In this document: positions 2,786 to 45,909 of the stretch, in pieces
Numbering within the stretch: position 1 is the first letter of the stretch
How the letters are laid out: each line of letters begins with the position of its first letter
Assembly (NCBI GenBank): GCA_963844965.1
Contig: CAWJQC010000009.1
Span: forward strand, 32,001-96,000
Origin: an uncultured bacterium
Lineage (GTDB): Bacteria > Patescibacteriota > Minisyncoccia > UBA6257 > 2-01-FULL-56-20
Length of the DNA stretch: 64,000 nt
Direction: 5' to 3'
Notes under the pieces: generated by a model
Told to the model about the DNA's origin: nothing
The model's input: the letters and a program-made list of their open reading frames with translations, nothing else
Database searches by the model: none
Position numbers and translations under genes: made by a program

Positions 2786-2961
2786 ACCCAGTAGTGAAAC
2801 TGTGATTATTTATAAATCAAGCAATTCACGACGTAATTACTAATTGCCCATGCAATAAACCGTAGATGCCGCAAAGATGTTTTCCGCCTACGGCGTCGCA
2901 GTTCTACTACTGGGCATATGGAAATTAGTGTAACAGCATTCTAACAAAAAGTAAACACTTG

Positions 2962-3032
2962 TACCCCCACTAGGAATCGGACCTAGGTCAACTGCTTAAA
3001 AGGCAGCTGCTCTACCACTGAGCTATGGGGGC
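2962..3032 (-). tRNA. tRNA-Lys (anticodon UUU)
   Basis: Minus-strand sequence GCCCCCATAGCTCAGTGGTAGAGCAGCTGCCTTTTAAGCAGTTGACCTAGGTCCGATTCCTAGTGGGGGTA folds as a cloverleaf. It has a 7-bp acceptor stem, D-arm GCTC/GAGC, an anticodon loop CTTTTAA (anticodon TTT), and T-arm CTAGG/TCCGATT/CCTAG. Confidence 0.8.
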
Positions 3033-3707: not shown

Positions 3708-3887
3708 TCATCTTTTCGATTCACTGATTTTCTTTTTGCAATCTTTGCAAATACCAGCCATTTGTTCGTCCCAATTGCTTAAATATTTTTTACAACTTAC
3801 ACACCGATTGGTTTCGGGAGTGGGAAGATGACACTTAGGACAAGAAGACATTCCGCCATATACAGCACCGCATTTGCAATTTGGCAT
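3708..3887 (-). CDS. Small zinc-ribbon protein with four CxxC pairs (59 aa)
   Basis: Manual translation gives MPNCKCGAVYGGMSSCPKCHLPTPETNRCVSCKKYLSNWDEQMAGICKDCKKKISESKR. It is below the 60-aa ORF-track cutoff. Confidence 0.45.
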   Translation of the reverse strand: MPNCKCGAVYGGMSSCPKCHLPTPETNRCVSCKKYLSNWDEQMAGICKDCKKKISESKR

Positions 3888-13266: not shown

Positions 13267-13689
13267 AGCAGGGTTACAAGGATCGAGAAGCGGTTGAGGC
13301 GACAAGCGACATTGCCTTGTCGTAAGGATAGCATGCGTCGGGACGAGGGTTTCGAAATGGCACTATTTCGGGAGCGAACGCCTGGTCGCAGGATGGGTGC
13401 ATTTACTTACAGGATGTTTCGCCGTGAGAGTTCACCCGACAGGCGGTTGAGGATTTTTTTGAGGGTTGTGCCAACCATCTCCTGATTACCAATTGAGGTT
13501 TGGTGTTAAGAATAAGTGAAACTTGGCTCTCCGACTCGTCTGTATCGGGCGGGGATCGGCGAATCGGACGGGCCCGTCTGCCGGAGCCGTTGATCTTATA
13601 CCAGTCATTTAGAGTCGATCACCGCCGGCTCAGCCTTGCTCTGAGCCAGCCCAATAAGGGAGATTTCTGCCATGTGGTAACACCAAGCC

Positions 13690-28947: not shown

Positions 28948-29952
28948 CTAACCGTGGCGCACGACAACCACGTCGCCGTCCTGAACCACATATTCTTTTC
29001 CTTCCAGCCGAATCTGCCCTTTTTGTTTCGCTTGCACCCAGCCGCCGAGTTCCAGAAGTTTTTGCCAGTTGATGACTTCGGCTCGGATGAAGTTCTTCTC
29101 AAAATCCGTATGAATGACGCCCGCCGCCTGCGGCGCCTTTGTACCGCGCTTTATCGTCCAGGCGCGCGTTTCGTCCTCGCCGGTCGTTAGAAAGCTTATC
29201 AAATCCAGAATTTTGTAGGCTTTCTCTATCAGAATCGGGAGCTTGTCGGACGCACCTAGGTCAGCCACGATATAATCCGCCCCCAACTCCCCTATTTTCT
29301 TTATCAATTCCGGCTTGACTTCATTTTCCTTACCGTTCAGGAGGTAAATCTGCCGCTTGGTGGTCAGTAAGTTCAACTCTTTCACGATTTCCTCGTCTTT
29401 ATGTTTCAAGATCAAATTGCCGCCGTTCAATTCCTTCCGCACCACCTCCAAGACAGCCAGGTTTTTCATCGCCTGCTTGTCGCCTGTGCGCGCTTCGCCC
29501 CCCAATTTTCCGAGGCGCTTATCAATCGTTTCCAAATCTTTCAAGGCAAGTTCGGAATTTGTAGTGATGAGATCGCGCAGGGCGTCAACTGAATTTTCCA
29601 CGTGTATAATTTCGGGGTTTTCAAATGTCCGAAGAACTAACACTATCGCCTGCGTGTCGCGGATGTGAGCCAAAAATTGGTTGCCTAACCCCTCGCCCTT
29701 GTAGGCGCCGCGCACGAGCCCGGCGATGTCGTAAAACTCAACGACCGCTGGCACAACCTTTTTGGAATTGCTCAATTTGGCGAGTTTTTCCAGGCGCTCG
29801 TCCGGAACCGACACAATGCCGACATTCGGGTCAATCGTCGCGAAAGGATAGTTGGCGATATTCACTTCTTGCTTCGTTAAAATTTTAAACAGGGTGGATT
29901 TGCCAACGTTGGGTAGTCCCACGATGCCGATTGAAAGTTTTTGACCCGACAT
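28948..29952 (-). CDS. ychF: Ribosome-binding ATPase YchF
   Basis: GIVGLPNVGKSTLF G1 motif, Obg-like GTPase core, and C-terminal TGS domain (…RLEGKEYVVQDGDVVVVRH). Confidence 0.9.
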   Translation of the reverse strand: MSGQKLSIGIVGLPNVGKSTLFKILTKQEVNIANYPFATIDPNVGIVSVPDERLEKLAKLSNSKKVVPAVVEFYDIAGLVRGAYKGEGLGNQFLAHIRDTQAIVLVLRTFENPEIIHVENSVDALRDLITTNSELALKDLETIDKRLGKLGGEARTGDKQAMKNLAVLEVVRKELNGGNLILKHKDEEIVKELNLLTTKRQIYLLNGKENEVKPELIKKIGELGADYIVADLGASDKLPILIEKAYKILDLISFLTTGEDETRAWTIKRGTKAPQAAGVIHTDFEKNFIRAEVINWQKLLELGGWVQAKQKGQIRLEGKEYVVQDGDVVVVRHG

Positions 29953-31523
29953 AGTTTAGATTTCTAATTGGTATACCGCCGTATACATGCAATTCTTCTT
30001 GAGTGCCTACGACTTTATCTATAACATCCCTAACTATCGTCTTTTTTCCCTCAAAATTCAAGCGTGCAACGACTTCCGCCGCGCACTCGGCAAATTCCCT
30101 TACCTCGTTCCATTGGGGCAAAATAAAGTCATTCTGGCGCTCTCCCGCCTCTGGCGGCTTTGGCATCCTGCTTTCCAGTAAAGCAACCCGTGCCCGTAAA
30201 TCGCTCTTGTATTCCTTCAGCTTCTCCATGCCTATCAGCCCCGCCCCGTATGCCCTGTCATAGCGAGCTTCCTCGTCTTTCAACTTCTCAACGTCCCTTT
30301 TGAAATTGAAAATGGATATATCGGGGCGCGCCGCGCTTTCTTTCTTTTTCCCGATAAACTTCTGCGCGTTTTTCATCATCAGTTCCGGCGAAGTCATAAT
30401 CCCTGCCGTCTTTTTCCATACGAGCGCATCGGCTATCCTCGCGTTTATTCCCCGCTCGGCGCACTTCGGAGGCAAGGGGAAGCTGTGAACCCTATCCGTG
30501 CAGCGATAATAAAGATGTTTCCCGCGCTGCGGGCCTTCTCCGGCCCGCCTTCTCCCGCATCCGCAGTAAATCTTCCCGCTCAAAAGATACTCGTTTTTCC
30601 GGTTTCGCTGGCACTCCGCGAAATTTACCGCAAGTTGCCGCGCCGCCCGCTCAAATAATTCTCGGCTGATGAGGGCGGGTGTCGTTATTTTTATCCACTC
30701 CTCCTCCGGCCTCACCTTGCGGCTCGTCTTTTTGATTCTCCGGTAGCCCTCTTTCTTAAACGGATTCTCCGGCACGACGGCATAAGAGCTTCCATAATGC
30801 CCTTCGCCTATGTAGGTTTTATTCCTCAAAAGCGTTGAAAGGGTGCTGGTATTCCAAACGCCCCGCGCGCTCCAGCGCGGCGCTATGCCCGCTTTCATAA
30901 GCTCCTTCACAACCTGCCGCAAAGTAAGCCCGTCATCGGCAATCCACGAAAATATCTTTTTAACAACGGTTGCCTCTTGTTCGTTGATTTCATAGCAGCC
31001 ATGTTTCCCATCCGTTTCTTTTTTCGGCTTAAAAATATAGCCGTAGGGAGCTTCGCTGGTAATAATATGCCCCTCTTTTGCCTTCCGCAGTTTCCCAAGC
31101 CGGAAGCGCTCGGCGATTTTCGCCCTCTCATACTCGGCAAAAAGCCCCCTAACACCGTGCAGGATTTTCTCCTCGCTATTTTTCGGACGGAATGGTAACG
31201 AACAATACTTCAACTCCCGCCTCCCGTAGTTCGTCCATCACCAATTCCTGATAAGAGTAGCGGCGGGCCAACCTATCTGGGTCATAAATCAAAACCGCTT
31301 CCCATATCTTCTTTTTCACGTCCTGCCGGAGCTGGTCGAGTTGAGGCCGCACGAGCGTGTCCCCGCTCCAGCCGTTATCAATGTATTCCTGCACGATGGT
31401 GTAGCCATTTTTCACGGCAAACTCCCGAACGGCGACAAGCTGGGTTTCAATAGTGCCTTCATCCGGCGAGGTGCTGACACGGGCGTATATGGCAATCAAT
31501 TTTATGATGGCGGCTTCGTTCAT
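29885..31523 (-). CDS. Large serine recombinase (resolvase catalytic domain + recombinase domain + zinc ribbon/coiled coil), split by a homopolymer frameshift near 31179-31183
   Basis: ORF 31176..31523 carries the catalytic domain with the YARVST serine motif. ORF 29885..31213 carries the recombinase domain and the C4 zinc ribbon (CGCG…CTDR…C). The two join if the A5/T5 run is one base shorter (…VTIPSE-NSEEKILHGV…). Its C-terminus overlaps the ychF start by 68 nt. Confidence 0.8.
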
Positions 31524-31747
31524 CGTTTCGTGTTCTTATGTTTGCTTAAAAACTTTTGATATTCGCTTTTCGGTATGCGCCAGAGCGCCGTCCCTTTGCC
31601 GAGTTTATACCCGACCAACAGCCCCTTTTGAAGCCAGCGTTGAACTGTGCGGGGATGTATCCGCAGATTTTTAGCGATTTCGTCTTTCGTGAGAAACTCC
31701 ATGCTTTTAATTCTATTCCCAATAGTCGCAGTTGTCAAAATTGTCAA
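31520..31747 (-). CDS. Excisionase-family HTH DNA-binding protein
   Basis: 75-aa ORF with …LTKDEIAKNLRIHPRTVQRWLQKGLL…, overlapping the recombinase start by 4 nt. Confidence 0.6.
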   Translation of the reverse strand: MTILTTATIGNRIKSMEFLTKDEIAKNLRIHPRTVQRWLQKGLLVGYKLGKGTALWRIPKSEYQKFLSKHKNTKR

Positions 31748-31807
31748 AAGTGGACATCTTACCCCACCACCCCACTCACTATATCGTAGGCGTAAAACAA
31801 TAGTGAG

Positions 31808-33334
31808 TTAGAGGGTGGGGTAAATGAGCATCCTCCTTCTATCGTCAGGGTCTGCTTCTTGGGCTATCAGTCCGGCATTTTCCAGCATCGGGATAATCTG
31901 TTGTCGCAAAAGCCAATCTGGGAGCGGCCGTCCATACACTTGGAAGTGTTTTTGCGTTATTTCCCGTCTTGTAAGCCCGCATGGGGCGCTCGCCATACCA
32001 TCATCATTCCTGCTTTGGTTCTTCTCCTCCCATAGAGGAATAATCACTTCGTTGAAAATCTGGTATACATACGGCGGCAGGTTCAGCTCTTGGCTTTCAG
32101 ATATAGCGTCCCACACTTTAAAGGCATTTTTGATGTCATCCTCATTCGCCACGATGGTTGAGCCGTCTCTCTCCCTGAACCAAACATTCAACAAGGCAAA
32201 TGCCTTAATAAGTGATAAAATACGTCCGATGTCTCGCTGGTGGCGCGGCTTCAACCTCTTGTTTGCGCTGAAAAATCCCTCCCCCACTTTTTCCGGCGTG
32301 CCTATTTTTATGTCGCTTATATGCGCCTGCCTAATTGCCAGTATCCGCTCTTTAAGAAGTTTGCGCTCCGGCTTTTCGTCCAACGCCAGTTGGTATGCTT
32401 CATTGTCGGCTTCTTTTCGTATTTTCTCATAAATTGCCTCCCGTATCTTTTCTTGGTCTGTCTGGGGACTTAACAATATAAATCTCGTCGTTTCCTGCTC
32501 GTCTGCTTTTAGTCCCGCCGTGCAAAAAATAACGGAGGGAAACCCCCTTAAAAATATATTTTTCGTTTTTAGCCCGCCTCGCTGTGTCTTATCGGTAATC
32601 TTGAGCTTTATCTCTTTTCTATCGTGCGAAAGTAGCGGGCGGAGATGTTGGAGAAGCAAGGTATGTGGCTGGTCAAGAAAAATGAGAATCTTACGGGACA
32701 AATCAACGACAAGTTCATTCGTCTCTTTTCTATACTCTTTTGCCTTATCGTGGAAAAATGCCGTTGGTGAGCAGTAGCCAAGTTCAATAATATCTTCTTG
32801 CGGAAATAATTGAGCAATTTCTGTTGGGATATAAGATTTACCAGTTGAAGAGGGGGCATTAAAACTGATATTGAGTTGTGCGTTCTCGGTATAGGCGGAA
32901 AGCTCGCAAAGGAAAGTAATGAGCTTATTCTCTTCGTCTTTTTTGATGGTTATGCCAAGTATTTTAAGAATCTCTTCGGATGAAAGCGGCTTGAATTGCG
33001 AGGTGTCAATCGGCATTTCCGGCGCTGGTTCGGAGTTTGTGTCCGCCAAAGGAGGTGTTTCGGCTGCATCTGCTATCGCCCTTCTCTCTTTAGGAATGGT
33101 CTCTTGGGTTTCCTCAATTCCCATTTCCTTCAGGATTTCGGTCAGTTCTGCTTCTTTTCTACAAAACCAACAAGTGCCACGCCCAGTTTCTGTATTGATA
33201 TGTAGCGCATCCTTCGTGCCAGAGACAGCATCGGCGCAATAAGGACAGCCGATTCTTAAGAAGTTGCCCACGACTTCATACTCTATCTTATTTTTGTTGA
33301 GTAGTTTCTTTAGGTCTATTAGATTTATTTTCAT
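31808..33334 (-). CDS. Primase-helicase-like replication protein (N-terminal zinc-binding motif + P-loop NTPase)
   Basis: CPYCAD…CWFC zinc motif, Walker A FNAPSSTGKSY, and a Walker-B-like ILIFLDQ. Confidence 0.55.
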   Translation of the reverse strand: MKINLIDLKKLLNKNKIEYEVVGNFLRIGCPYCADAVSGTKDALHINTETGRGTCWFCRKEAELTEILKEMGIEETQETIPKERRAIADAAETPPLADTNSEPAPEMPIDTSQFKPLSSEEILKILGITIKKDEENKLITFLCELSAYTENAQLNISFNAPSSTGKSYIPTEIAQLFPQEDIIELGYCSPTAFFHDKAKEYRKETNELVVDLSRKILIFLDQPHTLLLQHLRPLLSHDRKEIKLKITDKTQRGGLKTKNIFLRGFPSVIFCTAGLKADEQETTRFILLSPQTDQEKIREAIYEKIRKEADNEAYQLALDEKPERKLLKERILAIRQAHISDIKIGTPEKVGEGFFSANKRLKPRHQRDIGRILSLIKAFALLNVWFRERDGSTIVANEDDIKNAFKVWDAISESQELNLPPYVYQIFNEVIIPLWEEKNQSRNDDGMASAPCGLTRREITQKHFQVYGRPLPDWLLRQQIIPMLENAGLIAQEADPDDRRRMLIYPTL

Positions 33335-33502
33335 CTTAATTTTTGATTATTTTGTTAAAATCTTTCATCTTTCGCGCCCGCCACAACTCTAACGCCTTCT
33401 CAAACACCCGATTATAGGCCCGCTCCACTCTGCATCTGCGCTCCATATCCTCATCCTCCGTCATCCCTGCGGGCTCGTGATAAAATATTTTCAATGGCGT
33501 TC

Positions 33503-33754
33503 TCATTGGCTTTCGTAGAGCCGCCCCTTAATAATCCGCATCGCGTTGAAGTAGGCCGCCGGCTCGACCTTTAGCTCCCCGCGCCAGTAGCCCGTAATCA
33601 GTTCGTCCAATTTGGCATCCCGCTTGAAAATGAACTGCGCCTTGCGTGGATTCTCGCGGTCTATTGCTTCGAGCGGATAGAAAAGCGAAAGTGCCGTCGC
33701 GAGGGCGAGGTCTTGTGTCTTTACCAAATCATTTTCGTTTAATCGCGGAATCAT
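33503..33754 (-). CDS. Hypothetical protein
   Basis: 83-aa ORF. Confidence 0.4.
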   Translation of the reverse strand: MIPRLNENDLVKTQDLALATALSLFYPLEAIDRENPRKAQFIFKRDAKLDELITGYWRGELKVEPAAYFNAMRIIKGRLYESQ

Positions 33755-33855
33755 TCATGGCGATGACTCCGGCGAAATTAAAAAGCCGAAGCTCATCATG
33801 CTTCGACTTTACTAAATCGTCAGGTGAGTCAATTACGACTCAATTGCTTCACATC

Positions 33856-34632
33856 TTAATAATTCCGTTTTATTGTTTTTTCTTGCCAAGTAAATAATTC
33901 GTCATCTGTGTTGCACACTTCTTTTATCCGTTTGTTCAGGGCATCCATAGCGTCATAAACCACTCGCCAGTTTTCTCTGGTTGCTGGCGGTTTCCCGAAA
34001 AATGCTTTGTAATATCCGACTATTCCCTCATAAATTTTAGACCAATCTATGGGTTCGCTCGCTCTATACTCATACATCGCACGACAAAGAAAATGCTCAT
34101 TTTTATAGGGTGGAATTTGGCAATTTTGAGTTCCAATGTACAACAGCGCCTTATCATCGTCATATTTTATCCCCATAGATTTTAGGCTAATTTTTGGTTT
34201 TGTGGTATTTTCTATCGTTTCTTTTTCATCGCCATCCGGTTTTGGAGCGATGGCATCAAATTTTTCCGTGTCAATCTCCAAAATATAAACCGGCTTATCG
34301 TAATCCTTATCTGGAGAAGAAACGAAGTTTGGCCGCTTTGGATAGGTGGGTTGCGGCGCATGAGGCGCAAACATGTGTATCTTTTTAAGAACAACGCGAC
34401 CTTGCGCCATCCTCTCAAATCCTAATTTTATATCTTGGTCATCTAAACCCTCACTTAAGAGTTTCTCATGATATATCGGAATGTGAAGCGTTTTAATGCC
34501 AAACGGCCTCCGGTATTCCAGCGCATCATCTATTACTCCTAAAAGTATTTCATATTTATTCTTCATTTTCATTGTCATTATTGCCTTTATTTTACCACCT
34601 TTTCCGCGCTCCGGCAACATAAAATCAGACAA
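33856..34632 (-). CDS. Hypothetical protein
   Basis: 258-aa ORF with no recognised motif. Confidence 0.4.
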   Translation of the reverse strand: MSDFMLPERGKGGKIKAIMTMKMKNKYEILLGVIDDALEYRRPFGIKTLHIPIYHEKLLSEGLDDQDIKLGFERMAQGRVVLKKIHMFAPHAPQPTYPKRPNFVSSPDKDYDKPVYILEIDTEKFDAIAPKPDGDEKETIENTTKPKISLKSMGIKYDDDKALLYIGTQNCQIPPYKNEHFLCRAMYEYRASEPIDWSKIYEGIVGYYKAFFGKPPATRENWRVVYDAMDALNKRIKEVCNTDDELFTWQEKTIKRNY

Positions 34633-34827
34633 AAAACCGCCCCTTGCCGGCGGAAAATTCTCCCATTACGGATTACAGAAGGGGGTGGCAGGAGGGGCTG
34701 GAGATACCCTTTTTAGCGCCCCCATCATATCACTGGTGCTCATACGCACGCATCCCCTTAATATCGGGGGCATTGATACATACCCGATCCGATACCTGAC
34801 CCTATGCTGTTTCCTTATAAAACCGCA

Positions 34828-35103
34828 CTAACGCCAAACGAGGGGAAAAACCGCCATCGCGCCCTTTGAGGCCTGCTTTTTCTTTGGCTTTTTTCGCTCC
34901 TCCTTCGGAAGTTCGGGAATCCCATGCTCATCCGCCAGCATCACCTCGCTATGGTATATGCGCCATTTCCTGCCTATCTTAAAGCCCCGCAACTGCCCTC
35001 TTTCAAGGAAGCGGCGAATAGTTTTGATACTCACGGCCCAATGCCGCGCTAAATTTCTGGTCGTCCAAGAGCGTTGGACAATAAGCGCTTCGTCTCTGTC
35101 CAT
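34828..35103 (-). CDS. Excisionase/MerR-like HTH protein
   Basis: …WTTRNLARHWAVSIKTIRRFLERGQLRGFKIGRKWRI…. Confidence 0.55.
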   Translation of the reverse strand: MDRDEALIVQRSWTTRNLARHWAVSIKTIRRFLERGQLRGFKIGRKWRIYHSEVMLADEHGIPELPKEERKKPKKKQASKGAMAVFPLVWR

Positions 35104-35333
35104 GGATTGACTTCCTCCTTTGGGGCTTCGGCCAAGCCCTCGCGGGTTAATCGTAGCGCCTCCTCGTAGGGTATGCGGCGCAATTTTCCGAGCTTCACGC
35201 TTCTTATCTTCTGGCTTTTAATCCACCGGTTAATGGTCGCTATGCTGACGGAAAGCTGACGGGCGAGTTCCTTTGTTTTCCACGCGCGCTCCACAAAGTA
35301 TTCGTTGTAGCTCATGGTATAATTATACTCCAT
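35049..35333 (-). CDS. Excisionase/MerR-like HTH protein
   Basis: …WKTKELARQLSVSIATINRWIKSQKIRSVKLGKLRRI…; paralogous to the previous gene. Confidence 0.55.
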   Translation of the reverse strand: MEYNYTMSYNEYFVERAWKTKELARQLSVSIATINRWIKSQKIRSVKLGKLRRIPYEEALRLTREGLAEAPKEEVNPWTETKRLLSNALGRPEI

Positions 35334-35405
35334 GCGAGCATCATCTTATCCCCATCCACATCCACAACGCTTTACTTTAGCCCACAGATTGCTATTATTC
35401 AAATC

Positions 35406-35993
35406 ATGGCAGAGCCAATATCGCAGGAGAAGGAGGTTGTTTACATCAATTATTTTGACGGAATTGATATGGAAAGGGTGCGCCTCTTGATGGGCGTTTG
35501 CACACAAATTTTAGGCCAACTCAAACCAAAAACTTTATATTTTCTTTTCGCATCTCCTGGGGGACAGGTGGATGCAGGTATCGCTTTGTATAATTTTCTT
35601 AAAGCCATTCCTCCAAAAATCGTGATGCACAATATGAGTTCGGTGGATTCAATTGGAACTGTAGTTTTTCTTGCTGGGGATGAACGATACGCCTCTCCAA
35701 ACACCACTTTCCTTTTCCATGGTGTGAGTACTCAATTCCAGAAAGAAGCTGCCCTTAATTTAAGTCAAATCAAAGAAATAGAAAGCCGGCTCTCGGAAGA
35801 CCAAAATAAAATAGCTGGTATCATTGCTGACAACAGCCAAATTACAAAAGAAGAGGTGCAAAGGTTATTCGCTCAAGGAGAAACTAAATCCTTGGACTTC
35901 GCCAAGCAAAAAGGGTTCATCACTGACATTAAATCCCTCCGCCTCTCTCACGAGGATGTTCTTATCAATGTTGGTTTCCAAAGTAAGGGATAG
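35406..35993 (+). CDS. ClpP-like (S14 family) serine protease
   Basis: FASPGGQVDAGIALYNFL (ClpP SPGG box), a catalytic Ser context in NMSSVDSIGTVVFLAG, and His in FLFHGV. Confidence 0.6.
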   Translation: MAEPISQEKEVVYINYFDGIDMERVRLLMGVCTQILGQLKPKTLYFLFASPGGQVDAGIALYNFLKAIPPKIVMHNMSSVDSIGTVVFLAGDERYASPNTTFLFHGVSTQFQKEAALNLSQIKEIESRLSEDQNKIAGIIADNSQITKEEVQRLFAQGETKSLDFAKQKGFITDIKSLRLSHEDVLINVGFQSKG

Positions 35994-36136
35994 CTTTTCC
36001 CGTTCTAAATAGGGAAATCCCGCATAGAAGTAATTGGTGTCAGACAACTTTTTTTCTTTTTCCGGCATAGTCATGTACCCAGTATACCAAATCTCCACAA
36101 CGGTGCAAATGCGTCCACGGTTTTAATTTAATTGCG

Positions 36137-38115
36137 CTAATTACTGAAAAAACGATAGCAAACTCCATGTATTGTCTGGATACTTATCGTCTCGTTATAT
36201 ATGTTATTATCCCCTATACTGGCGCAATCTACCTCCTCAAATATGCCCGTAGAATAAGTCCCATTATTATCGTGAATGGTATTATACATAATTGTGTTTG
36301 CATCAAAAATACCATCGCCATTATTTTGAATATTGTTTAGCAGTACCTTGTCGCCGTCAAAAATTCCCGCATAATGGCGGCCTGTCCCACCGGACCCATC
36401 GGGAGCTTGCCATATACATACCCGCCTTTAGCTGAATTTTGAATTGTTAAATATTGAATTGTGCTGTTTTTTGCCCCCACTACTGTATTCCCGGTATTAC
36501 TACCGTCTATTATTGTTTTATTTTCATCTTCTCCGTAAATACTAACTCCATCTTTTAGCACAACATTTTCATAATAAGTACCGTCGGCTATTTTAATATT
36601 ATCTCCGCTTTGAGCGGCGTTTATTGCCGCTTGAATTGTTGGATAATCGGCTGGCACATTAATGACATTTTGCAATTGCGTAGAAAAAGATTTTTGATCG
36701 CTCGTAGCCGTATTACCACTTTTATCAGAAGCGTTTATTTTATAATTATAAATTGTCCCCGGTAATAATCCTGTAACAGAAATACTGTGGCTCGTTGAAA
36801 GCGTGGAATCAGATAATACTAATACGTCATAATCTCCAAAGGGAGAATATGATAATTGGATGGTACTGGGTTCGTCTGTTGTGAGTGAAATCACCGCAGA
36901 ATTTGTGGTTGTATTAGATGATTGGATATTAGATATTACGGGTGGCATGCTATCGCAAGAGGTCGTCTCGTCAGGTTTTCCAGTAGTAATTCCACAATGC
37001 ATCAAATCGTTGCAGGTTCGTGTTTGTTGAGAATTTGCACAAGTGCTCCATGAGCCACATTGCCAGTTAGGAGTACACGTACATGATTGCGTCAAAGCCG
37101 GTTCTCCGGTTGAAACGCCGCAACTGTTTGAATCGTTGCAGGTTCGTGTTTGCATAGAATTCAAGCAGGTGTTCCAATTTGTGCATTGCCAATTTGGGGT
37201 ACAATTAACCGTTGTTGAACAACTGGTAGTTTGAGTTTGCCCGCCAAAATTAACAGTAAGATTGGCTGTTTTAGTACCTGCTTGAGAAAAAGAATTTGAA
37301 CAGCTTGATTTAGACCCAACACAATCACCAGTCCAAGAATAAATATAAGTACCAGTTCCTCCTAAAATTGCGACAGAGGAAGAAAATGTTACCGATTGGT
37401 TTGTTTGGTATGAGTTTGAATTTGCCGAACAAGAAACGGAAAGCGTTGCTGTGGGCGGAGTGCACGATTGAGTTAAAATTGGCTCTCCGGTTGCAACTCC
37501 ACAATTATTTGAATTGCTACAAGTCCTCATTTGTTGGGAATTTGCACAAGTGCTCCATGAGCCACATTGCCAATTTGGAGTACATGCTGGTGGCGTAGTA
37601 TTTTGTTGAATTTGCTGAAGCGTTTGATTTGTTTGCTGTTGGGCCGCTAACTGTTTTTGCAACAAGGCAACCTGCTGCAGAAGTGCGCTCAATTGCGACT
37701 GCAGTGAATTATTAATGTCATTCGTAGTTGCGGGCGGCGTTGGAGTTGGCGGCGTTGAACTGGTTTCCGCAATCGCCTGCGCGTTGGATGCCGAAAGCTG
37801 TTGCGACAATATCGCGTTTGCTGCCGTTCTTGTGAGCGGCCCGAAATATCCCGCGGGTGGCGTTATGTCTTGAGTAGTTTGGAATTGCTTGACCCCCGCG
37901 AGCGTCAAAGAAAAGAAATTGCCGCTGATTGGGCCGGAATATACGCCTTGAGATGTAAGAAATTCTTGGAGCTTGGTAACGTCGGAATCGCCCTGTATGC
38001 CGAAATATAAATCTTTTGTGAATAAGGTTTGCGCCTTGACCACTGGAATACCAAAGGAAGCCACGAGAAGAACTGCGATAACAAATTTTTTCATATTCAT
38101 TTTCATTGTTTTCAT
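36137..38115 (-). CDS. Secreted multidomain protein: signal peptide, peptidoglycan-binding domain, 3 Cys/Trp-rich repeats, FN3-like domain and right-handed beta-helix; split by a homopolymer frameshift near 36359-36363
   Basis: PG_binding_1-like LQEFLTSQGVYSGPISGNF…, three copies of CTPNWQCGSWSTCANSQQTRTCNDSNSCG, and PbH1-type repeats (IKIADGTYYENVVL…). After the annotated stop the other frame continues with beta-helix repeats (…FDGDKVLLNNIQNNGDGIFDANTIMYNTIHDNNGTY…). Lengthening the T5 run to T6 joins the two frames. Confidence 0.6.
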
Positions 38116-38128
38116 GGCACTCTTTTTT

Positions 38129-38332
38129 CTAACGAACAACATTAACCATCGCACAATCTCCTTCGTAACACTTTAGAAGGTCTAATATACTGCCTGCAGG
38201 GTTGTTGCTGTAAATATCGGATGTTGTTTTATAAATCTTTTCCAACTGCGAGGAAATGCGAAACAGTAAAACAATCGCCACTATCAGCAAAGCGACTATT
38301 ACCCATAGGGGGCTCGTAGATTTTAAATCCAT
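38129..38332 (-). CDS. Small membrane protein (holin-like, speculative)
   Basis: 67-aa ORF with 1 TM helix. Confidence 0.35.
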   Translation of the reverse strand: MDLKSTSPLWVIVALLIVAIVLLFRISSQLEKIYKTTSDIYSNNPAGSILDLLKCYEGDCAMVNVVR

Positions 38333-38338
38333 AAAAAT

Positions 38339-38554
38339 TTATTTTTTATCAGCCCAAAGTTTGTAAAGAATGAAGGTAATAATTCCAAAGAAAATAAAGA
38401 AGAATGGAACAGTGATTAAGCTCCCAATTATAACTGTATAGCCGTTGAGAGAATATCTCCCATCAAGAACGCCCAGAAAATATGAAGAATAGAACCCAAC
38501 AATCGGAGATAAAATTAAATAAATAGTGATGATTATTTTTTGAGATTTATTCAT
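38339..38554 (-). CDS. Small two-TM membrane protein (holin-like, speculative)
   Basis: 71-aa ORF with two hydrophobic helices. Confidence 0.4.
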   Translation of the reverse strand: MNKSQKIIITIYLILSPIVGFYSSYFLGVLDGRYSLNGYTVIIGSLITVPFFFIFFGIITFILYKLWADKK

Positions 38555-39095
38555 ATAATTTTATTTTTCCATATTTTAAATCTAACCAAAAAGGGACTAA
38601 CCGCACCACCTTGCGTCCCACAGTTTCAGACACCACGAGGGCATCTTTAGTGGAAGATGGGCGATTAGCCCCTTCCTGCACTAAAGAAAAACCCTCTGGC
38701 GACACAAAACCGTAGGACGCACCTTTACTATACCACGATAGCCCCGCAAGGCAACAAAAGCAACCGCCCGTTCGTGGGGCGATGTCCCACTCTTTTTTGA
38801 AACTCCAAAGAAAACTAACCCTATGGGGTTAAATCAAAAAGCCGGCGCGGACTTTCCCGCCGGCCCGAAACCGCGCCGAAATTGAATCACCGCCCCGCCC
38901 CCGCCGTGCCGCTCAAAGCCGGTCTGCGCCCTCTCGCTGGAAACGGCATCCTAATCGTAAATTCAAATGGAATCAGTTTTAATCTGCCTTCGCTCTCAAC
39001 CCCGTGTCGTGTTGTGTTCGCTCCATACCTATGGATAGTTTCATTTGTGTTAATATTAAAGAAAAGTCGCGTAATTAACAAATAGTATAAACGAT

Positions 39096-40490
39096 ATGAA
39101 TAAAAAAATTGTTTTTACGGCCGCTTCGGCCGCATTTCTGCTCGTAGTTTTATTGGCAAACGCCCAAATGCCGGTTCCTGCCGCTAATAACGCAGAAGCG
39201 TCTGGTGTCGGCACGGTGGCATCGAGCGCAACCGCAACGGTTGTTCCTGGAGCCATGAATCCAACTTTTATCATCAACCCGGTATCTCCAACGCTTGGCG
39301 GAAGTAATTCTTCGGGAACACCGGTCATGAATCCGCCGATTATAGCAAGACCCATATTGCCGCCGACGCAGGGCAATAATATTATCCAATTCAACAACCT
39401 AACCGTACAAAGCGTTTCGGCAACCACCCCGCCGGCAGAAATTGTAGCCAATGGCGGTATCTATAACATTCAGAGCGGCGGCACAACACCGCCAACGATG
39501 CAGCCGATGAATGCGCAAGTTTTCCCGCAAGCCACGCAGACATCTTCAATGAATTATTTGCAATCCAAATGTTTGAGGTATGAAAGTTTAGAGTCAAATT
39601 CCCCGATGGTAATCGCCTGCCCTGTTCCTCAAACTTCCGCTCCCGCGAGTTCAACCGTCACTGTCTCGCCCGGAGCAACCGCAATAATGCCAGTAGTGCC
39701 ACCGATATATCGCGGCGGACAATATCGTCTTGAGGTATCCACAACGACCCACCTCATGTTTAATGACCGTACATCGGCGGCATTAACCGATTTCTCGCCC
39801 GGCGATCAAATAAACGTTTACGGCATATACAATGAGGACGGAACCGTAGACGCGCTTATCGTTCGCAATCTTTCCAAGCCGTTCACAAAGCAGTTTGTCC
39901 AGCTCAACAACGTTAATTTGGTTTCGGTCTCGGCGACAACCACTCCGGCAACGCTTGTGGTCGCGCAGCAAATCGCCAATCCCTGTTACGGTTTCGGCAC
40001 CGATGGTAACACTAGGCAGGGAGCCATAGCCTGCCCCACGGGACTGCAATCGTTATCCGACAATGCCGCGTCGCAGAATGTCACGGTGCCGCAAGCCATA
40101 ATGCCCATTTTCAACCAATCGCGGAAGTATGTGATACAAATCGACACGCAAACAATACTGATGGACCGTGAGCGGGGTACACTCGCGCTTGGTGATCTCA
40201 AGATTGGTGATCAATTGAATATTTACGGCGCGACGCTGGACACAAACGGCGCGACGATTAATGCGGATATCGTCCGCGACCTCACGCAACCTCCGGTGGC
40301 GCAGAACTACAGTGGCCGCGTTACTCAGGTGAACGCCGACGGCTCGTTCGTGATTCAGAACTGACGGCGGCGAAACGTACACGGTGCAAAATCCGATACA
40401 AGTCGGCGCGACGGTCCAGCTCAAGGGGTTATTGGACCAGCTGCAAAAAATTATATCGCAGGTTTCTCAGATTATATTGCAGTGAATAAC
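39096..40490 (+). CDS. Secreted repeat protein with a signal peptide, a Pro/Thr-rich region and three beta-rich repeats of about 55 aa; the last repeat is split by a frame change at about 40362
   Basis: MNKKIVFTAASAAFLLVVLLANA signal. The repeats are …SPGDQINVYGIYNEDGTVDALIVRNLS… and …LGDLKIGDQLNIYGATLDTNGATINADIVRDLT… After TGA (40362..40364) the +1 frame continues …DGGETYTVQNPIQVGATVQLKGLLDQLQKIISQVSQIILQ*. Confidence 0.5.
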
Positions 40491-40550
40491 GGGCGAGAAT
40501 CACCCAACCAAAAAAGAAGGCGGAAACTAGGCAACGTTTCCGCCTTTTGG

Positions 40551-40724
40551 CTTACACCGCCCAGCCATAGCCATCTTCCCATTGTTCACTGCCGTCTTCG
40601 AGCGGATTTATCACCCCGGTTTCTTCCGCTTCCAGCTTCTTCGTTTCTGGAGTTTCATTTTTTGGCCGTACTTCAACCGTCTTTCCATTCGATGTCGACT
40701 GATCGTAAGGTCTTGACATTGTTC
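40551..40724 (-). CDS. Small acidic hypothetical protein (57 aa)
   Basis: MSRPYDQSTSNGKTVEVRPKNETPETKKLEAEETGVINPLEDGSEQWEDGYGWAV, with a GGAGGTGAACA-ATG Shine-Dalgarno. The upstream region at 40725..40870 contains three palindromes. Confidence 0.35.
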
Positions 40725-41049
40725 ACCTCCCAAAGAGCTATCTGCGATTCAGACCGTTTTCTGGTCTGAAAATTGATTATTTTCCAAACAATCAATTTTC
40801 AGGCCGGCATTGATTTAAAAAACCTCCTTTGGCGGGGAGGTCTTTTGCATTTTGATTTTGATATTTTATCGGTTTTTTACATATATGCAAGACCCCCTCG
40901 CCGTTTTCGGAGAATAAGTACAAGCAGAAGGCCAAGAAGACTCCGGGAGGACAAGGGCAAACTTTGAATTGCGAGATATGGCGTGTTCATTGTCATTTAG
41001 GTTCAGTTTATAGTGTTTGTCGGCTATGTCAAGAGCGCCCTGTGGAAAA

Positions 41050-41415
41050 TTAAATGCCGCTGTTTTTCTTTACGCCTCGCGCCATTTCAAAAAGCGCGAG
41101 CGCTCCCATCAAAAGCCCGACGTCCCTGAACGTGATGTCCAAGATGTTCAAATTCAGAACAACTATCGCCGCGAGCGTTATGGCGGCGAGGAGCGAAACC
41201 CAAACGAGCTTGCGGCCCCAGAAAAGAAAAGCTGCGAGTATTATCTCATAAACGGAAAATGCGGCGGAGAGTAAGTTTGAGAACGGCATGTTCTGCAAAA
41301 ACTGGGGAAAATATCCGGCCCAGTCGTCGGATTTAATAAGTCCGGCTATGGCGGCGTAGAAGAAAACAAATGCCAGTCCCCAGCGCAAAATAATCTCGGC
41401 GGAATTTCTGTTCAT
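41050..41415 (-). CDS. DoxX-like small membrane protein (putative)
   Basis: 121-aa ORF with 4 TM helices. Confidence 0.4.
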   Translation of the reverse strand: MNRNSAEIILRWGLAFVFFYAAIAGLIKSDDWAGYFPQFLQNMPFSNLLSAAFSVYEIILAAFLFWGRKLVWVSLLAAITLAAIVVLNLNILDITFRDVGLLMGALALFEMARGVKKNSGI

Positions 41416-41425
41416 CCGTTTGTAT

Positions 41426-42433
41426 TTACATTATACCTTTCGGGGTCTTACTTATTCGCACCTCCGAACCTGGCACGGTCACCCACTCGTCGTTAACCAA
41501 TTCCTGGGTTGCCTTGAAAGATACGACCGCTTCCTCTTTGGGATGAACTCGGTCTTCTCCTTTTACCATTCTACTAAAAATTACGTCGCGCAGTTCCCGT
41601 TTCTGGTCGTCTTCGTACTTGTGTAATATCTCGCAATCGCTCAAGAAAATTTTATGCCAGCTGCCACTGGGGTAGCCTGGCTCCCCGATAATTTCTTCCT
41701 CAACTTCTTCAACGTCGTGTTCAGCTGGATTCGCGGGGGTGGAAGATATTTCCCTTATAAGACGACGTCGCTTATCGCCCTCACGCCATTCCCTGATGAC
41801 TTGATATTCTTCTTTTTTCGGTTCATCCACGCCTGCTTGTTCCATGTTTTTTATTATCTTTGATACAGCCCGACAAGATACCGCTTGTGCAAGTAAATAC
41901 CTATTTATCTCCGCCTCAAGAGATTTTTTGTCCGAACCCGACTTTAAGTCAATTACAGCGCTTAGCGCGTAAATTGTAAAGTGATAGTGGTGAACTCCGG
42001 ATGGCGGGCAGGGACCGACGTAAGAAATCGTACCCGAACCATTTTTCCCTTCAATACTGCCGGCCGGCAAATCGCCATCCTCAATAACGGACGTCTTCGG
42101 GTCAATGTTCCAAACCAGCCAGTGCGTGAAGCCGCCGGCCATCGGCGCGTCCGGATCGTGCATTATGAGCGCCAAGCTTTTTGCTCCGGCCGGCACGCCG
42201 GAAATATCCAACTCGGGAATTGTATTTTCCCCGTCGCAGGTGAATCTCCTTGGAATATAGCCGTTATTTTCAAATGAGGTGCTTGTGATAGTCATAGAAT
42301 TATTTATTGGGTTATTGTTGATGGTTGATGTTGCTGGAGTCGTCGTTATCCGAGACGCACGAAAAATATAAGCCGATACGAAGATTATAGCAAAAATTAT
42401 GAATATTACGGTAATTCTCCGCGTTTTAGACAT
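41426..42433 (-). CDS. YbhB/YbcL-family PEBP (Raf-kinase-inhibitor-like) protein with an N-terminal TM anchor and a C-terminal acidic extension of about 150 aa
   Basis: …CDGENTIPEL…ALIMHDPDAPMAGGFTHWLVWNI…GPCPPSGVHHYHFTIYAL…. Confidence 0.7.
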   Translation of the reverse strand: MSKTRRITVIFIIFAIIFVSAYIFRASRITTTPATSTINNNPINNSMTITSTSFENNGYIPRRFTCDGENTIPELDISGVPAGAKSLALIMHDPDAPMAGGFTHWLVWNIDPKTSVIEDGDLPAGSIEGKNGSGTISYVGPCPPSGVHHYHFTIYALSAVIDLKSGSDKKSLEAEINRYLLAQAVSCRAVSKIIKNMEQAGVDEPKKEEYQVIREWREGDKRRRLIREISSTPANPAEHDVEEVEEEIIGEPGYPSGSWHKIFLSDCEILHKYEDDQKRELRDVIFSRMVKGEDRVHPKEEAVVSFKATQELVNDEWVTVPGSEVRISKTPKGIM

Positions 42434-42522
42434 TGTTTTAGACTATCAATTTATCAGTATATTACCTTCAAAATTAATGTTAAGTGCCGAAAAATTCAGT
42501 AAAATCAGGAAAAAATCGGCTG

Positions 42523-42550
42523 TTGACAAATATATAGAATCTGCTACAAT
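42523..42550 (+). promoter_or_regulatory. Near-consensus sigma70 promoter, TTGACA-N16-TACAAT
   Basis: TTGACA at 42523..42528 and TACAAT at 42545..42550; no protein gene follows. Confidence 0.6.
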
Positions 42551-42556
42551 ATGAGC

Positions 42557-43128
42557 AGCACCACCGAGAAGATTCCGGTGGGCCAAAATCTGTAAACCGT
42601 CGCTTATCAAAGGCGACGGGACGAAGGAGGATGCCATGGCGGCAAAAAAGGGAGTACCTGCTTTTCTGATTTCTTACGGCCAAGCTGGACGGGAACGGAA
42701 CAATATCCGGACCGCAGAGGTTGTGGTGTGCGTGTTGGGTCGTTCCACTACCCACCACCTTGAACTTCGGGGTGGAAAGTGGCTTGGCAAGAACGGTGTG
42801 GAATACAAAATCAACGACCGCATCAGAAATCGTAAGAACTGAGAGGGTCCAAAAGCCCACCACCCAGGACCCTAATCGAGGAGAGTGAGCTGTGCCAAGT
42901 AGGTAGACCCGCCGCCGAGGCCTAAGTCGGGGGGTTGAGAGACCAAAAATTCAGTCAAAATAAAAACAAATCCCGCGCTGACCCCAGCCGGTTGTATCCA
43001 GGGTGATACCGGTCAAACAAAAATCCACACTGGCTCCGCGAAAGCGAGGCGAAGTCTGTAGAAGATAGCACTCTACAGAAGGCAGGGCGGCAGTGCCCCA
43101 GGAGAGTTGGAAGACTCTCCTTTTTTTA
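42557..43128 (+). ncRNA. Candidate structured ncRNA of about 570 nt, identity unknown (RNase P RNA-like, OLE-like or novel)
   Basis: The interval runs from the promoter to a strong terminator with no credible protein gene. It contains many perfect stem-loops: CCGTCGC…GCGACGG, GGGTCC…GGACCC, CCGGT…ACCGG, TCTGTAGA…TCTACAGA, a GAAA tetraloop, and CCACTACCCACC / GGTGGAAAGTGG. Confidence 0.45.
43101..43128 (+). terminator. Intrinsic terminator
   Basis: GGAGAGT-TGGAAG-ACTCTCC hairpin followed by T7. Confidence 0.7.
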
Positions 43129-43430
43129 TTGTTCACTCGCAAGAATACCCTATACCTTCTTGCAACGTGATGAGAAGGTGTAGGGATGAATTGCGATGTG
43201 TGAATAATAAACCCCTCCCCATTTGTGGCAGGGGTTTGGTGATAACACCCAGCGAGAGCCGTAAGGCGACTTCGTCTTTGTATGTCGTGTGCGCATAGTT
43301 TTTGCGGCAAATGGAGAGGGGTGAATAACCGCAAGACCGCAGAGCGGCTTGGATACCGCACCGCTCTGCGGTGCGGTTATTCATTTTCTTTTCGGGAAAA
43401 AGGTGGCGATAGCAGGTTTAGTGGCCCAAA

Positions 43431-43766: not shown

Positions 43767-44201
43767 GGAGGGTTAGAAGTATTACCGCTTATTCATATTA
43801 ACCTCAAATCCGCATCTTGGAAAACAAATAACTGCGGACATAAAAATGCCTGATGATTATGGATAGGCCCCCATAAGAATGGGGGCTGGGCCGCACCCGG
43901 AGGCGACTTATCGCGGCATATCTCCATTTTCAACTCTTCTGATCGCTGGTTGTTGGGCGCGGCGGCTGGGTCGCTACTCCACTTTTTCATTTTCATTAAA
44001 TTTATTTGACTTGTTTGCTTGGCTGACCTTTGTTTTTGTTATTATTGCTTTCTTGACGAACTGGTTCTCATAAATTGTCGGCGATTTGTTTTTTATTATT
44101 ATCATGAAAGAATTTTAGAATGCTGGCAGTGAATATTGGATGAAAACACAAAAAAGGACCCCGTGATTGGATCCTTTTTTGATTTCCGATTTCCCGCACA
44201 A

Positions 44202-45290
44202 CTATGCGGCGTGCGGGAAAGTGACACGCACGATTGTGCCCTTATTAAGCTTGCTTTTTATGTTTATGCGCCCGCGGTGCAGTCGCACGATTTCGTTCAC
44301 GAGCGCCAGGCCCAAGCCGGCGTGACCAGTGACTTTCGCGTCTTCTTTTTCGCTGCCTTCGCCCGTTCGGCCGGCGCGATAAAACGGTTCCATAATTTTG
44401 GGAAGGTCTTCGGGACTTATGCCCCTGCCGTTGTCTTTGACCGTCAATTCAACTTCGCCCTGATTATTTTTAACCACGGAAACCATGACGGAACCGCCGG
44501 CGGGAGTGTAAGAAATGGCGTTATCCAGTAGATTTTTGACCATTTGTTCCAGCGCTGCGGGATTCCCCCAGATCTGCACCCAGTCGTATTTCGCGGACGC
44601 CAGCCTTATTCTTTTCTCCTTTATCGTTTTTGACCACTCCGTTTCTCTTTTTACCATCAACGAAACAAGCTCCGAAAAATTCAGCTTATAAAAAGGCGTC
44701 TGCGAGCGATTCGCGTATCTGGCGATGAACAGGAGATTCTCAATGATCTTCGCCATCCTGTCCACTTCCTCCACGTTGCTCTTTACAAGCTTTACGGCGT
44801 CAGCAAGCGTCTCATCTGACGCGCCGCCGCGCAAAAAAATTTCCGAACTTGTTTTAATGATGCTGAGGGGCGTGCGGAGCTCGTGCGCGGCGTCCGCCAT
44901 AAACCTTTTTTGGTCCTCCATCGTCTTTTTTACCGGCCGCAGAACCACGTTCGTGGCGAAATACAGGAGAACACTCGCTGCCGCACCGATAAAAACTTCA
45001 ATGTAATTTTCCCTCCTGTCGATTTCGTTGAATTCCGCGGCCAACAGGCCCCTTTCTTCCTGACTGAGAGCGCGCGAATTTTCTATGGTTACCAGCGCCT
45101 GCTGCCTTTCGTAGCCGAACACGGCGTCCACGACGAGCGTGAAGACGATTATGCTCAAAATCGCCGCTATGACCAGCTTAAATCTTGCGGATTGCAAAAC
45201 TTCTTCCCTGAAAAACCGCTCGCTCCCCCTCCAAGTCCTATCCTTTGAACTTGTAGCCCACGCCGTGAATTGTTTCCAGTAGGTCCTCAT
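44202..45290 (-). CDS. Sensor histidine kinase
   Basis: Two TM helices, H-box (AAHELRTPLSII), and N/G1/G2 ATPase boxes (…DNAISYTPAGG…DNGRGI…GLGLAL…). Confidence 0.8.
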   Translation of the reverse strand: MRTYWKQFTAWATSSKDRTWRGSERFFREEVLQSARFKLVIAAILSIIVFTLVVDAVFGYERQQALVTIENSRALSQEERGLLAAEFNEIDRRENYIEVFIGAAASVLLYFATNVVLRPVKKTMEDQKRFMADAAHELRTPLSIIKTSSEIFLRGGASDETLADAVKLVKSNVEEVDRMAKIIENLLFIARYANRSQTPFYKLNFSELVSLMVKRETEWSKTIKEKRIRLASAKYDWVQIWGNPAALEQMVKNLLDNAISYTPAGGSVMVSVVKNNQGEVELTVKDNGRGISPEDLPKIMEPFYRAGRTGEGSEKEDAKVTGHAGLGLALVNEIVRLHRGRINIKSKLNKGTIVRVTFPHAA

Positions 45291-45909
45291 GCCCCGCGAG
45301 TTTTTTCCTCAAATTTTTTATATGCACGTCTATCACATTGCTGAATGAACTGTCGGCGAAATCCCAAATATGGTCGTGAAGCTCCTCGCGATTTATCACG
45401 CGGTTAGGATTTCTCATAAAATATTCCAGAAGCGAAAATTCCTTGAGCGTCAGGGAAATTTTCTTCCCGCCCAGAACCACGTCGCGAGTCGCCGTGTTCA
45501 AGGCAAGGTCGCCCGCCGTAAGGGTCGTGGGCAGGAGAGATTTCTTCGGCCTGCGCAGAAGCGCTCTCACTCTCGCCACCAGCTCTTCAAAGGCGAACGG
45601 CTTCACGAGGTAATCGTCCGCGCCGCTATCAAGGGCAGTGGTCTTGTCCTCCACTGAGGGCCGCGCGGTAAGGACAAGAATGGGAATAGTTATCTCGCGT
45701 TCACGAATGCTCTTGCACACGGCAAACCCATCTTTTTTTGGAAGCATTAGGTCAAGAAGCACGAGGTCGTAATCATTGTGCGAAACGAGTATCCGCCGTT
45801 CCGCGGTTTGCCCGTCCGTCACGTAATCGGCCGCGTATCCCTCTTTCTCCAAACCGCTTTTAATGGCTTGAGCTAATTTTTCTTCGTCCTCAACTATCAA
45901 TATACGCAT
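45238..45909 (-). CDS. OmpR-family response regulator
   Basis: Receiver domain (MRILIVEDE…DLVLLDLMLP…) and winged-helix domain (…GVGYKFK). Confidence 0.85.
   Translation of the reverse strand: MRILIVEDEEKLAQAIKSGLEKEGYAADYVTDGQTAERRILVSHNDYDLVLLDLMLPKKDGFAVCKSIREREITIPILVLTARPSVEDKTTALDSGADDYLVKPFAFEELVARVRALLRRPKKSLLPTTLTAGDLALNTATRDVVLGGKKISLTLKEFSLLEYFMRNPNRVINREELHDHIWDFADSSFSNVIDVHIKNLRKKLAGHEDLLETIHGVGYKFKG

Follow-up and report, generated by a model that had tools for sequence, protein, structure and literature searches.

The closest described counterpart of the element discussed here is the DUF1874 motif, which received its name from the DUF1874 genes located nearby (Weinberg et al. 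2017, NAR 45:10811; PMC5737381). It was described as a multistem structure with highly conserved nucleotides and a conserved internal loop, located mostly in 5' untranslated regions (UTRs) and often in consecutive intergenic regions, following the order RNA, open reading frame (ORF), RNA, ORF; as a possible explanation, the authors proposed an unusual attC site (PMC5737381). The same study introduced the motifs DUF3800-I, drum and FuFi-1 as well as skipping-rope, which contain highly conserved loops, are not located in 5' UTRs, are followed by intrinsic terminators and are tied to particular neighbour genes (PMC5737381). Here we analyse a 997-nt insertion in a 64,000-nt stretch of a Patescibacteria (candidate phyla radiation, CPR) genome (GCA_963844965.1, contig CAWJQC010000009.1, positions 32,001 to 96,000; hereafter the window, to which all coordinates refer), carrying a promoter, an ORF of 68 amino acids (aa), a conserved structured motif and an intrinsic terminator. 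The original prediction, made from the letters of the sequence, considered the interval 42523-43128 a candidate structured non-coding RNA (ncRNA) of about 570 nt inside an integrative element, and named as further options a divergent rnpB or the mRNA of a small protein whose 3' region is long and structured. The reading which we favour, and to which we give about an even chance, is that of an autonomous mini-cassette, representing either the mRNA of a small orphan protein or a decaying remnant, with a conserved RNA module in its 3' UTR.

Comparing the family of the window's motif with the DUF1874 motif, similarities and differences are found side by side. Members of our family adjoin DUF1874/B116-like genes (in L084, L088 and L102, and by homology in L104), and successive copies occur in L088 as well as in marine contigs. 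The motif differs from the published one in that it begins 10-75 nt past the stop codon of a small upstream gene (63-163 aa) and is often followed by a terminator, and the window itself has a single copy and no DUF1874 gene. Judged by the published description, identity of the two is plausible but unproven, and we put its chances at even or slightly better. DUF3800-I, drum and FuFi-1 as well as skipping-rope likewise resemble the present motif in their conserved loops, the frequent terminator behind them and their particular neighbour genes; however, none of these Rfam families matches, and sequence as well as architecture differ.

A cassette inserted between two operon genes

The gene-free gap in the window extends over 42434-43430 and is wider than the interval originally reported. 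Spacer lengths in relatives and tblastn searches identify it as a 997-nt insertion between the gene of a 111-aa protein, which is encoded downstream, and a PEBP gene, both on the - strand. In the relatives L081, L082, L083, L149 and L150 these two genes lie on the same strand, separated by a spacer of 11-28 nt. The 111-aa protein is conserved in Patescibacteria, including Liptonbacteria, Colwellbacteria and Paceibacterota. The junction of the two genes is a hot spot; it holds two large genes in L086, and in L151 a different neighbour is found.

Using the proteins of L083 as tblastn queries, the order of genes in the window was established as GDH, PGI, a histidine kinase/response regulator pair, the 111-aa gene, the 997-nt insert, PEBP, the 136-aa homolog, a DoxX-like gene, a stretch of ~11 kb with a serine recombinase, and YchF. 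The DoxX-like gene, the 136-aa homolog and PEBP thus separate the serine-recombinase element (about 29.95-41.05 kb) from the cassette, which therefore is a separate small insertion outside the recombinase-bearing element. Its placement inside the integrative element was wrong, as three backbone genes lie between the two.

Homologous cassettes occupy the same site in the same orientation in two related lineages of Patescibacteria, L084/L085 and L088-L090. These inserts of ~780-910 nt carry as payload an opposite-strand gene of 115-125 aa, which belongs to the STIV_B116-like/DUF1874 family (PF08960, E = 5e-10). Common to all inserts, that of the window included, are the order promoter, payload, motif and terminator and likewise the orientation. 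The window, L084, L085 and L088 have nearly the same promoter block, TTGACAAATATATAGAA.TCTGCTA (for example, TTGACAAATATATAGAATCTGCTACAAT in the window versus TTGACAAATATATAGAAATCTGCTAATAC in L088), in contrast to the flanking 111-aa gene, whose DNA identity between window and L084 amounts to just 79%. A second segment common to the window and the B116 inserts, GG-UUGUAUCCAGGGUGAU-CC ... CAAAAAUCCACACUGG, is located at 42987-43033 in the 3' part, and L088 contains two copies of the motif in tandem, arranged around a mini-remnant. AcrIII-1 and Crn2, both cyclic-tetra-adenylate ring nucleases, are members of the DUF1874/STIV-B116-like family, and the payload of the sister-genome cassettes is a member of this ring-nuclease family. 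None of the collections searched contains a homolog of the 5' 380 nt of the interval, and the window's own payload, with the 68-aa ORF and its Shine-Dalgarno sequence, is likewise without a homolog.

The window unit is reminiscent of phage morons and anti-defence mini-cassettes in that it brings its own promoter and terminator along with a small ORF, is located between two genes of the host and would be transcribed independently. It differs from them in being located in a chromosomal operon spacer instead of a phage context, and in carrying a conserved structured RNA module.

The conserved 3' motif and its family

Conservation of the interval is confined to ~60-120 nt of the 3' region, with a core at 42987-43033 (+) which was detected through nhmmer matches to L084 and L088. 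This core consists of the P2 hairpin GCCGGU/ACCGGU with the loop UGUAUCCAGGGUGAU (42987-43013) and the linker CAAAAAUCCACACUGG (43018-43033). A metagenome scan with the pattern ATCCAKGG-N(8-38)-AAAATCCACNCTGG returned 57 loci, of which ~25 have the extended architecture; the rest score far lower on the family profile and look like chance matches. In its full form the family begins with a variable hairpin (P0), followed by P1 (GGUUG, stem, AAAAUCC loop, stem, GUAAAAGC), by P2, whose stem bears the invariant loop UUUGUAUCCAGGGWGAU, by the linker AAAAAUCCACACUGGAGYC and by the P3 stem with the loop RAGCAGAR. P2 of the window has the family loop (U)UGUAUCCAKGGWGAU, on a stem whose differences from the stems of the other members are compensatory, and the linker CAAAAAUCCACRCUGG is found exactly at 43018-43033. 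Leave-one-out profiles, constructed either without the window or without all cassette copies of the related Patescibacteria, returned 42990-43045 as the sole match in 64 kb (E = 1.7e-12 and 2.9e-10, respectively). They did not recover the P0/P1-like part at 42915-42972 (+), which was assigned by positional alignment with P0/P1 of L102, L118 and the marine copies, and comprises P0 (hairpin 42915-42930) and, from GGTTG at 42933-42937 to 42972, a degenerate segment resembling P1. According to alignment A5 and the fold, the position of P3 is taken by a hairpin with GNRA loop at 43034-43050 (+).

Support for the structure comes from the model-based alignment A5 of 13 sequences, in which 80.1% of the cells are paired, compared with 66.0% in shuffles (none out of 500 reached the observed value). 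The covariation score is 0.346 versus 0.133, and all slid registers give 0.133 at most. Changes on both sides of a pair were observed in all four modelled P2 pairs, in three P1 pairs and in two P3 pairs. P1 contains U-G as well as G-U pairs, and the fold therefore is placed on the sense strand, that is, the strand of the upstream gene. RNAalifold further proposes a long-range pairing of GGUUUGUAUCC with GGAAGCAGAGCC, in which every column involved is invariant and which could represent a loop-loop contact. Taken at the level of sequence comparison, these data show the motif to be a conserved structured family with covariation support, and none of the motif-bearing loci matches any Rfam 15 family.

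The members of this family stem from CPR loci, from contigs of a marine, unclassified 'bacterium' metagenome-assembled genome and from the metagenome contigs L100, L102, L104/L131/L146 and L118; viral contigs of IMG/VR, searched with three patterns, do not contain the motif. The upstream genes belong to varied families, among them DUF1874-like genes, a Zn-ribbon protein and unknowns. DUF1874-like genes near the motif include the 163-aa gene of L102 (Pfam E = 1.7e-3) and its homolog in L104, besides those of L084 and L088. An intrinsic terminator follows the motif in the window, L084, L088 and L118. Two copies each are present in L088, L098, L107 and L114, and on the marine contigs the motif is found in consecutive intergenic regions.

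Such successive copies raise the question whether the motif acts as DNA, being an attC-like single-stranded recombination site which bounds exchangeable cassettes; the window unit would then be a captured cassette. Weinberg et al. (2017) put forward the same idea for the DUF1874 motif (PMC5737381). The arrangement resembles that of integrons: a folded element stands behind each of a range of small ORFs, and at a fixed locus, between conserved flanks, the payload differs from case to case. The patchy presence of the cassette among relatives, the tandem copies of L088 around their mini-remnant and the consecutive marine copies would suit this explanation as well, as would a 39-nt direct repeat of the P1-like segment in the window. 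The left copy of this repeat (42479-42517, +) is located just upstream of the promoter and its partner (42934-42972) is the P1-like part of the motif, so that both copies bracket promoter and ORF. They are identical at 29 of 39 positions, which none of 200 Markov-1 randomisations reached (mean 23.1, maximum 27); as both copies are A-rich, caution is advised and the repeat should be taken as a lead only. However, no integron integrase (IntI) is found nearby, the sole recombinase of the window being the serine recombinase 11 kb away, and direct reading of the motif reveals no R''/R' core sites (RYYYAAC / GTTRRRY). The sequence conservation of the motif is far above that usual for attC, the cassettes have their own promoter and terminators, and arrays do not exceed two copies. 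Moreover, attC recombination uses the bottom strand, while the wobble pairs of the motif favour the sense strand. We therefore regard a role as attC-like DNA site as quite improbable. Somewhat wider in scope, and in our opinion unlikely, is the idea that the motif is an uncatalogued functional nucleic-acid element which moves along with small accessory genes, DUF1874 ring-nuclease-like ones among them, of CPR and further uncultured bacteria and defines a non-integron cassette system, be it a new catalytic or processing RNA or a structured recombination site, with the window recording a cassette swap at a chromosomal hot spot. The readings considered in this work partly overlap.

Some further features of motif-bearing contigs should be mentioned in their own right. 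Hits to the type III hammerhead ribozyme, which score 31-35 bits (E = 4e-4 to 4e-3) and stay short of the Rfam threshold, occur in three independent motif-bearing lineages, at 3735-3789 and 5492-5546 (-) of L098, 1494-1548 (-) of L102 and 166-220 (+) of L131, which is 1-7 kb from the motif. The one at 3735-3789 of L098 has, on direct reading, the canonical CUGAUGA...GAAAC core, and each L098 hit is located just upstream of a gene. The contigs of the marine 'bacterium' harbour two copies, at a distance of 1.9 kb and with 85-95% identity, of a ~440-nt module (L098 2303-2774 and 4191-4739), in which the gene of a small Zn-ribbon protein (63-91 aa, ending in ...TATGRPV.S) is combined with the RNA motif. 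With ACGGCUGC as alternative partner, the P3 loop and 3' strand (GCAGAGCCGU) of L118 (1017-1062) can form the terminator stem; P3 and terminator are mutually exclusive there in a riboswitch-like manner, which is not the case in L084 and the window.

Predicted transcript, ORF and competing explanations

The features on which the original prediction was built are confirmed as real and non-random at the coordinates given here. The sigma-70 promoter TTGACA-N16(TG)-TACAAT at 42523-42550 (+) shows 11 of the 12 consensus positions along with a TG extension. Six sites of the window score 11/12 or better, compared with 0.5 expected in Markov-1 random sequence, and only that at 42523-42550 has the TG extension. 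At the other end, the terminator scan found an intrinsic terminator (+) with a 9-bp stem at 43100-43121 followed by T7, the T-run reaching to 43128. The GNRA tetraloop is part of the hairpin CGC-GAAA-GCG at 43037-43046, and several hairpins of 6-9 bp exist elsewhere in the interval. The 5' UTR (42561-42619, +) contains two hairpins (42561-42581 and the 9-bp hairpin 42597-42619); both are present in the minimum free energy and centroid structures, and 42525-42674 folds with z = -4.0. Two more (43055-43081 and 43085-43099, +) appear in the fold of the interval. Between these structured ends lies the 68-aa ORF (ATG at 42636, stop at 42840-42842), which together with its Shine-Dalgarno sequence occupies 42624-42842 (+). 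The strong Shine-Dalgarno sequence noted earlier indeed exists (AAGGAGG at 42624-42630, with 5 nt between its end and the ATG), while the low-complexity composition also attributed to the ORF was not found.

From this arrangement we propose that the cassette was inserted antisense into the short spacer of the conserved 111-aa/PEBP operon of this Patescibacteria genome. The near-consensus promoter would start an RNA at ~42557, and the predicted RNA would consist of a two-hairpin 5' UTR, a strong Shine-Dalgarno sequence, a 68-codon ORF, a 3' UTR of ~290 nt and the intrinsic terminator. Its promoter and a 3'-UTR core of ~50 nt are homologous to those of the cassettes at the same spot whose payload is the DUF1874/STIV-B116-like gene. 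The 3' module would act in cis, most likely as RNA, with 3'-end protection or processing, or a factor-binding site, as putative roles. Throughout the family the motif is positioned 3' of small genes and often accompanied by a terminator, and the transcript is therefore read as a small-protein mRNA with a cis-acting 3'-UTR module. Among the options offered at the outset, the mRNA of a small protein with its long structured 3' region agrees best with the data, and within that region lies a conserved RNA motif supported by covariation.

The ORF as a coding sequence is plausible but unproven. Its peptide, beginning with MAAKKGVPAFLISYGQAGR..., has a codon-usage log-odds of 0.061, with frame 0 being the best of the three frames and scoring above 98.8% of off-frame windows. 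A single-sequence AlphaFold2 prediction of the product is all-beta, with a mean pLDDT (predicted local distance difference test) of 69 and a pTM (predicted template modelling score) of 0.52. Several observations weigh against a functional mRNA and have to be considered here. Among real genes, the codon score of the ORF stands no higher than the 10th percentile, and about the same value (0.095) is obtained for an antisense ORF. Apart from itself, the ORF has no relative among 5.8 billion protein clusters; it belongs to no Pfam family, and its AlphaFold2 model has no significant neighbour in the PDB. The phmmer matches P0002-P0004, obtained from 1.84 billion representatives, are repeat proteins aligned to differing short pieces of the query and were discarded as spurious. 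Conservation of the ORF, which would have pointed to protein coding, was thus not found in either the clusters or the representatives, and the ORF is an orphan. Regarding the motif, the window copy is the lowest-scoring true member on the covariance model R1 (65.8 bits). It has lost the family P3 loop RAGCAGAR, with CUCCGC-GAAA-GCGAGG in its place and the P3 columns unpaired in A5. Its P1 is degenerate, retaining GGUUG and the A-rich AAAAAUUCA loop on a stem of 3 bp, and the CPR copies L084 and L088 deviate as well. The copy in the window may therefore no longer be working. General caution should accordingly be applied to the transcription of the unit, the translation of the ORF and the role of the motif, all of which we infer.

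These observations lead to the question whether the window harbours a decaying relic of a DUF1874/B116-like cassette, with an eroded gene, an ORF that is residual or due to chance, and a degenerating motif, perhaps still transcribed and without function. The unit shares slot, promoter and 3' motif with the B116 cassettes, no other member of the family has diverged as far as its motif copy, and the ORF is an orphan. In addition, a weak collinear resemblance exists between the ORF and the B116 proteins (M-AAK... and TAEVVVCVLGR versus MFAAK... and TADVLTTLLGR), with p = 0.037 and 0.06 in shuffled Smith-Waterman alignments. However, the B116 family HMM (hidden Markov model) gives a non-significant E = 0.76 for the ORF in hmmsearch, Pfam detects nothing in any of the three frames of the payload, and the payload DNA aligns locally with the B116 genes no better than expected by chance (143 and 35 out of 500 shuffles equal it). 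A relationship of the window payload with the B116 payloads is hence not demonstrable from the sequences, beyond a marginal resemblance of the proteins. It also speaks against decay that the window promoter is closer to the consensus than the promoters of the B116 cassettes, and that Shine-Dalgarno sequence, ATG and both terminators are intact. On balance we consider a mere relic possible, though rather unlikely, and maintain the mini-cassette with its 3'-UTR module as the preferred reading.

The initial proposal of a single large structured ncRNA covering the whole ~570-nt interval, with the ORF being incidental, draws on the folding energy. On the + strand, 42557-43130 (574 nt) folds with -217.9 kcal/mol (z = -4.46; none of 100 shuffles as good), while the - strand has z = -1.82; the unit also possesses its promoter and terminator, and the ORF is not conserved. 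A sliding fold scan, however, locates the excess of structure at both ends, in the 5' UTR (z ~ -4) and in the terminator region (z ~ -2.8 to -5). Windows in the middle have z between -0.4 and -3.1, and 42600-43050 is not unusually structured. Only the ~60-120 nt at the 3' end are conserved elsewhere, the remaining parts of the region being unmatched in phage, plasmid, viral and metagenome searches, and the homologous slot behind the same promoter in the sister genomes L084 and L088 codes for a protein. Together with the 5' 380 nt lacking a homolog and the absence of an Rfam match even at E<=10, this makes a single novel ncRNA of ~570 nt very improbable.

Known RNA families do not account for the region either. 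Scanning the whole window with Rfam 15 (cmscan, gathering threshold) yielded a tRNA alone, and at E<=10 the segment 42300-43500 gave noise, with no RNase P, tmRNA, OLE, GOLLD, ROOL, HEARO or riboswitch. ARAGORN detected tRNA-Lys at 2961-3032 alone and no tmRNA. The large ornate RNAs (OLE, GOLLD, ROOL, HEARO/omega RNA, raiA) have no Rfam match in the window or the related loci. A comparison with Rfam, suggested at the outset as a check, found no family. Short stretches reminiscent of RNase P RNA had been pointed out in the interval; these resemblances are not significant and of the kind expected by chance. A divergent rnpB was rejected, as no RNase P model matches at E<=10 and the P4/CR-I/CR-V architecture of the bacterial RNase P RNA is missing from the window, and the same applies to tmRNA, which neither ARAGORN nor the Rfam model supports, as well as to OLE, GOLLD, ROOL and HEARO. 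Within the motif, resemblances to the tmRNA pseudoknot PK1 (GGUUG...CGUAAAAGC) and to RNase P (GCACGGUAAAC, GCAGARCC) were dropped, since in both cases the topology differs and no covariance model matches. Searching for relatives of the region by other routes gave negative results: blastn of 42440-43430 against phage and plasmid collections returned nothing, a 20-mer from the ORF region had zero matches in viral contigs, PEBP-based loci from GTDB genomes (L002-L080) contained no homolog, and a concatenated-protein scan of metagenomes found no relatives.

Surroundings of the cassette and its significance

The most extreme structure begins at the 3' edge of the reported interval. Within 43125-43400, where z is -11.85 on the + and -11.77 on the - strand, a block at 43126-43393 (+) is made up of three long near-perfect hairpins (43126-43210, 43211-43322 and 43322-43383), whose arm ends have TGAATAA/TTATTCA in common. 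The + strand of the block is 14 kcal/mol more stable than the - strand, and its last hairpin represents a second + strand terminator (43355-43377, with a T-rich tail). The block is missing from the homologous L084 and L088 cassettes and occurs nowhere else in the window; it could be an insertion resembling a MITE (miniature inverted-repeat transposable element), or it could insulate the convergent cassette and the 111-aa gene from each other in both directions. At the opposite end, the insertion has severed the PEBP gene from its operon, and a promoter-like site on the - strand (TTAACA-N16-TATACT, 42456-42483, 10/12 match) faces this gene; in L088, an analogous TATAAT-type site upstream of the PBP gene was read directly from the sequence.

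The 'PEBP' ORF itself (335 aa, 41426-42433, -) looks like two genes fused. In relatives these are separate, PBP measuring 146-208 aa and the gene next to it, in the closest relatives, 133-136 aa. Of the L083 proteins, PBP corresponds to 42304-41882 and the 136-aa protein to 41845-41429; the two genes may truly have fused, or a stop codon may have been lost. At lower coordinates, the ~11 kb between YchF and the DoxX-like gene (29885-41050), where the spacing in L083 and L087 amounts to ~0.4-1 kb, begin with the serine recombinase (29885-31213) and encode ClpP-like, peptidoglycan-binding/fn3 and DUF5666 proteins; this stretch is the real integrative element. On the other side of the cassette, the histidine kinase/response regulator pair (44202-45909, -) is located between PGI and the 111-aa gene, which are adjacent in L083, L084 and L088 and separated by ABC-transporter genes in L081. 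This site is a second variable slot of the neighbourhood. Another gene-free stretch, of 430 nt, is found at 43767-44201. Finally, 11000-19000 is an island of high GC content (0.58-0.66 compared with ~0.48 elsewhere), which points to foreign DNA, mis-binning or a chimera.

For annotation purposes, the region should be recorded as an inserted mini-cassette and neither as a giant ncRNA nor as rnpB, and it should not be filed as a new large RNA. As a by-product, the analysis yields a conserved motif, RNA or possibly single-stranded DNA, which shows covariation, has no match in Rfam 15 and is present in groundwater Patescibacteria as well as in marine uncultured bacteria. It is positioned just after small variable genes, several of which are genes of the DUF1874 family, to which anti-CRISPR ring nucleases belong. 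Should the motif mark exchangeable cassettes or process their transcripts, it would shed light on the way in which streamlined CPR genomes shuffle small accessory or anti-defence genes without integrons, and would also provide a concrete locus for the unexplained DUF1874 motif of 2017.

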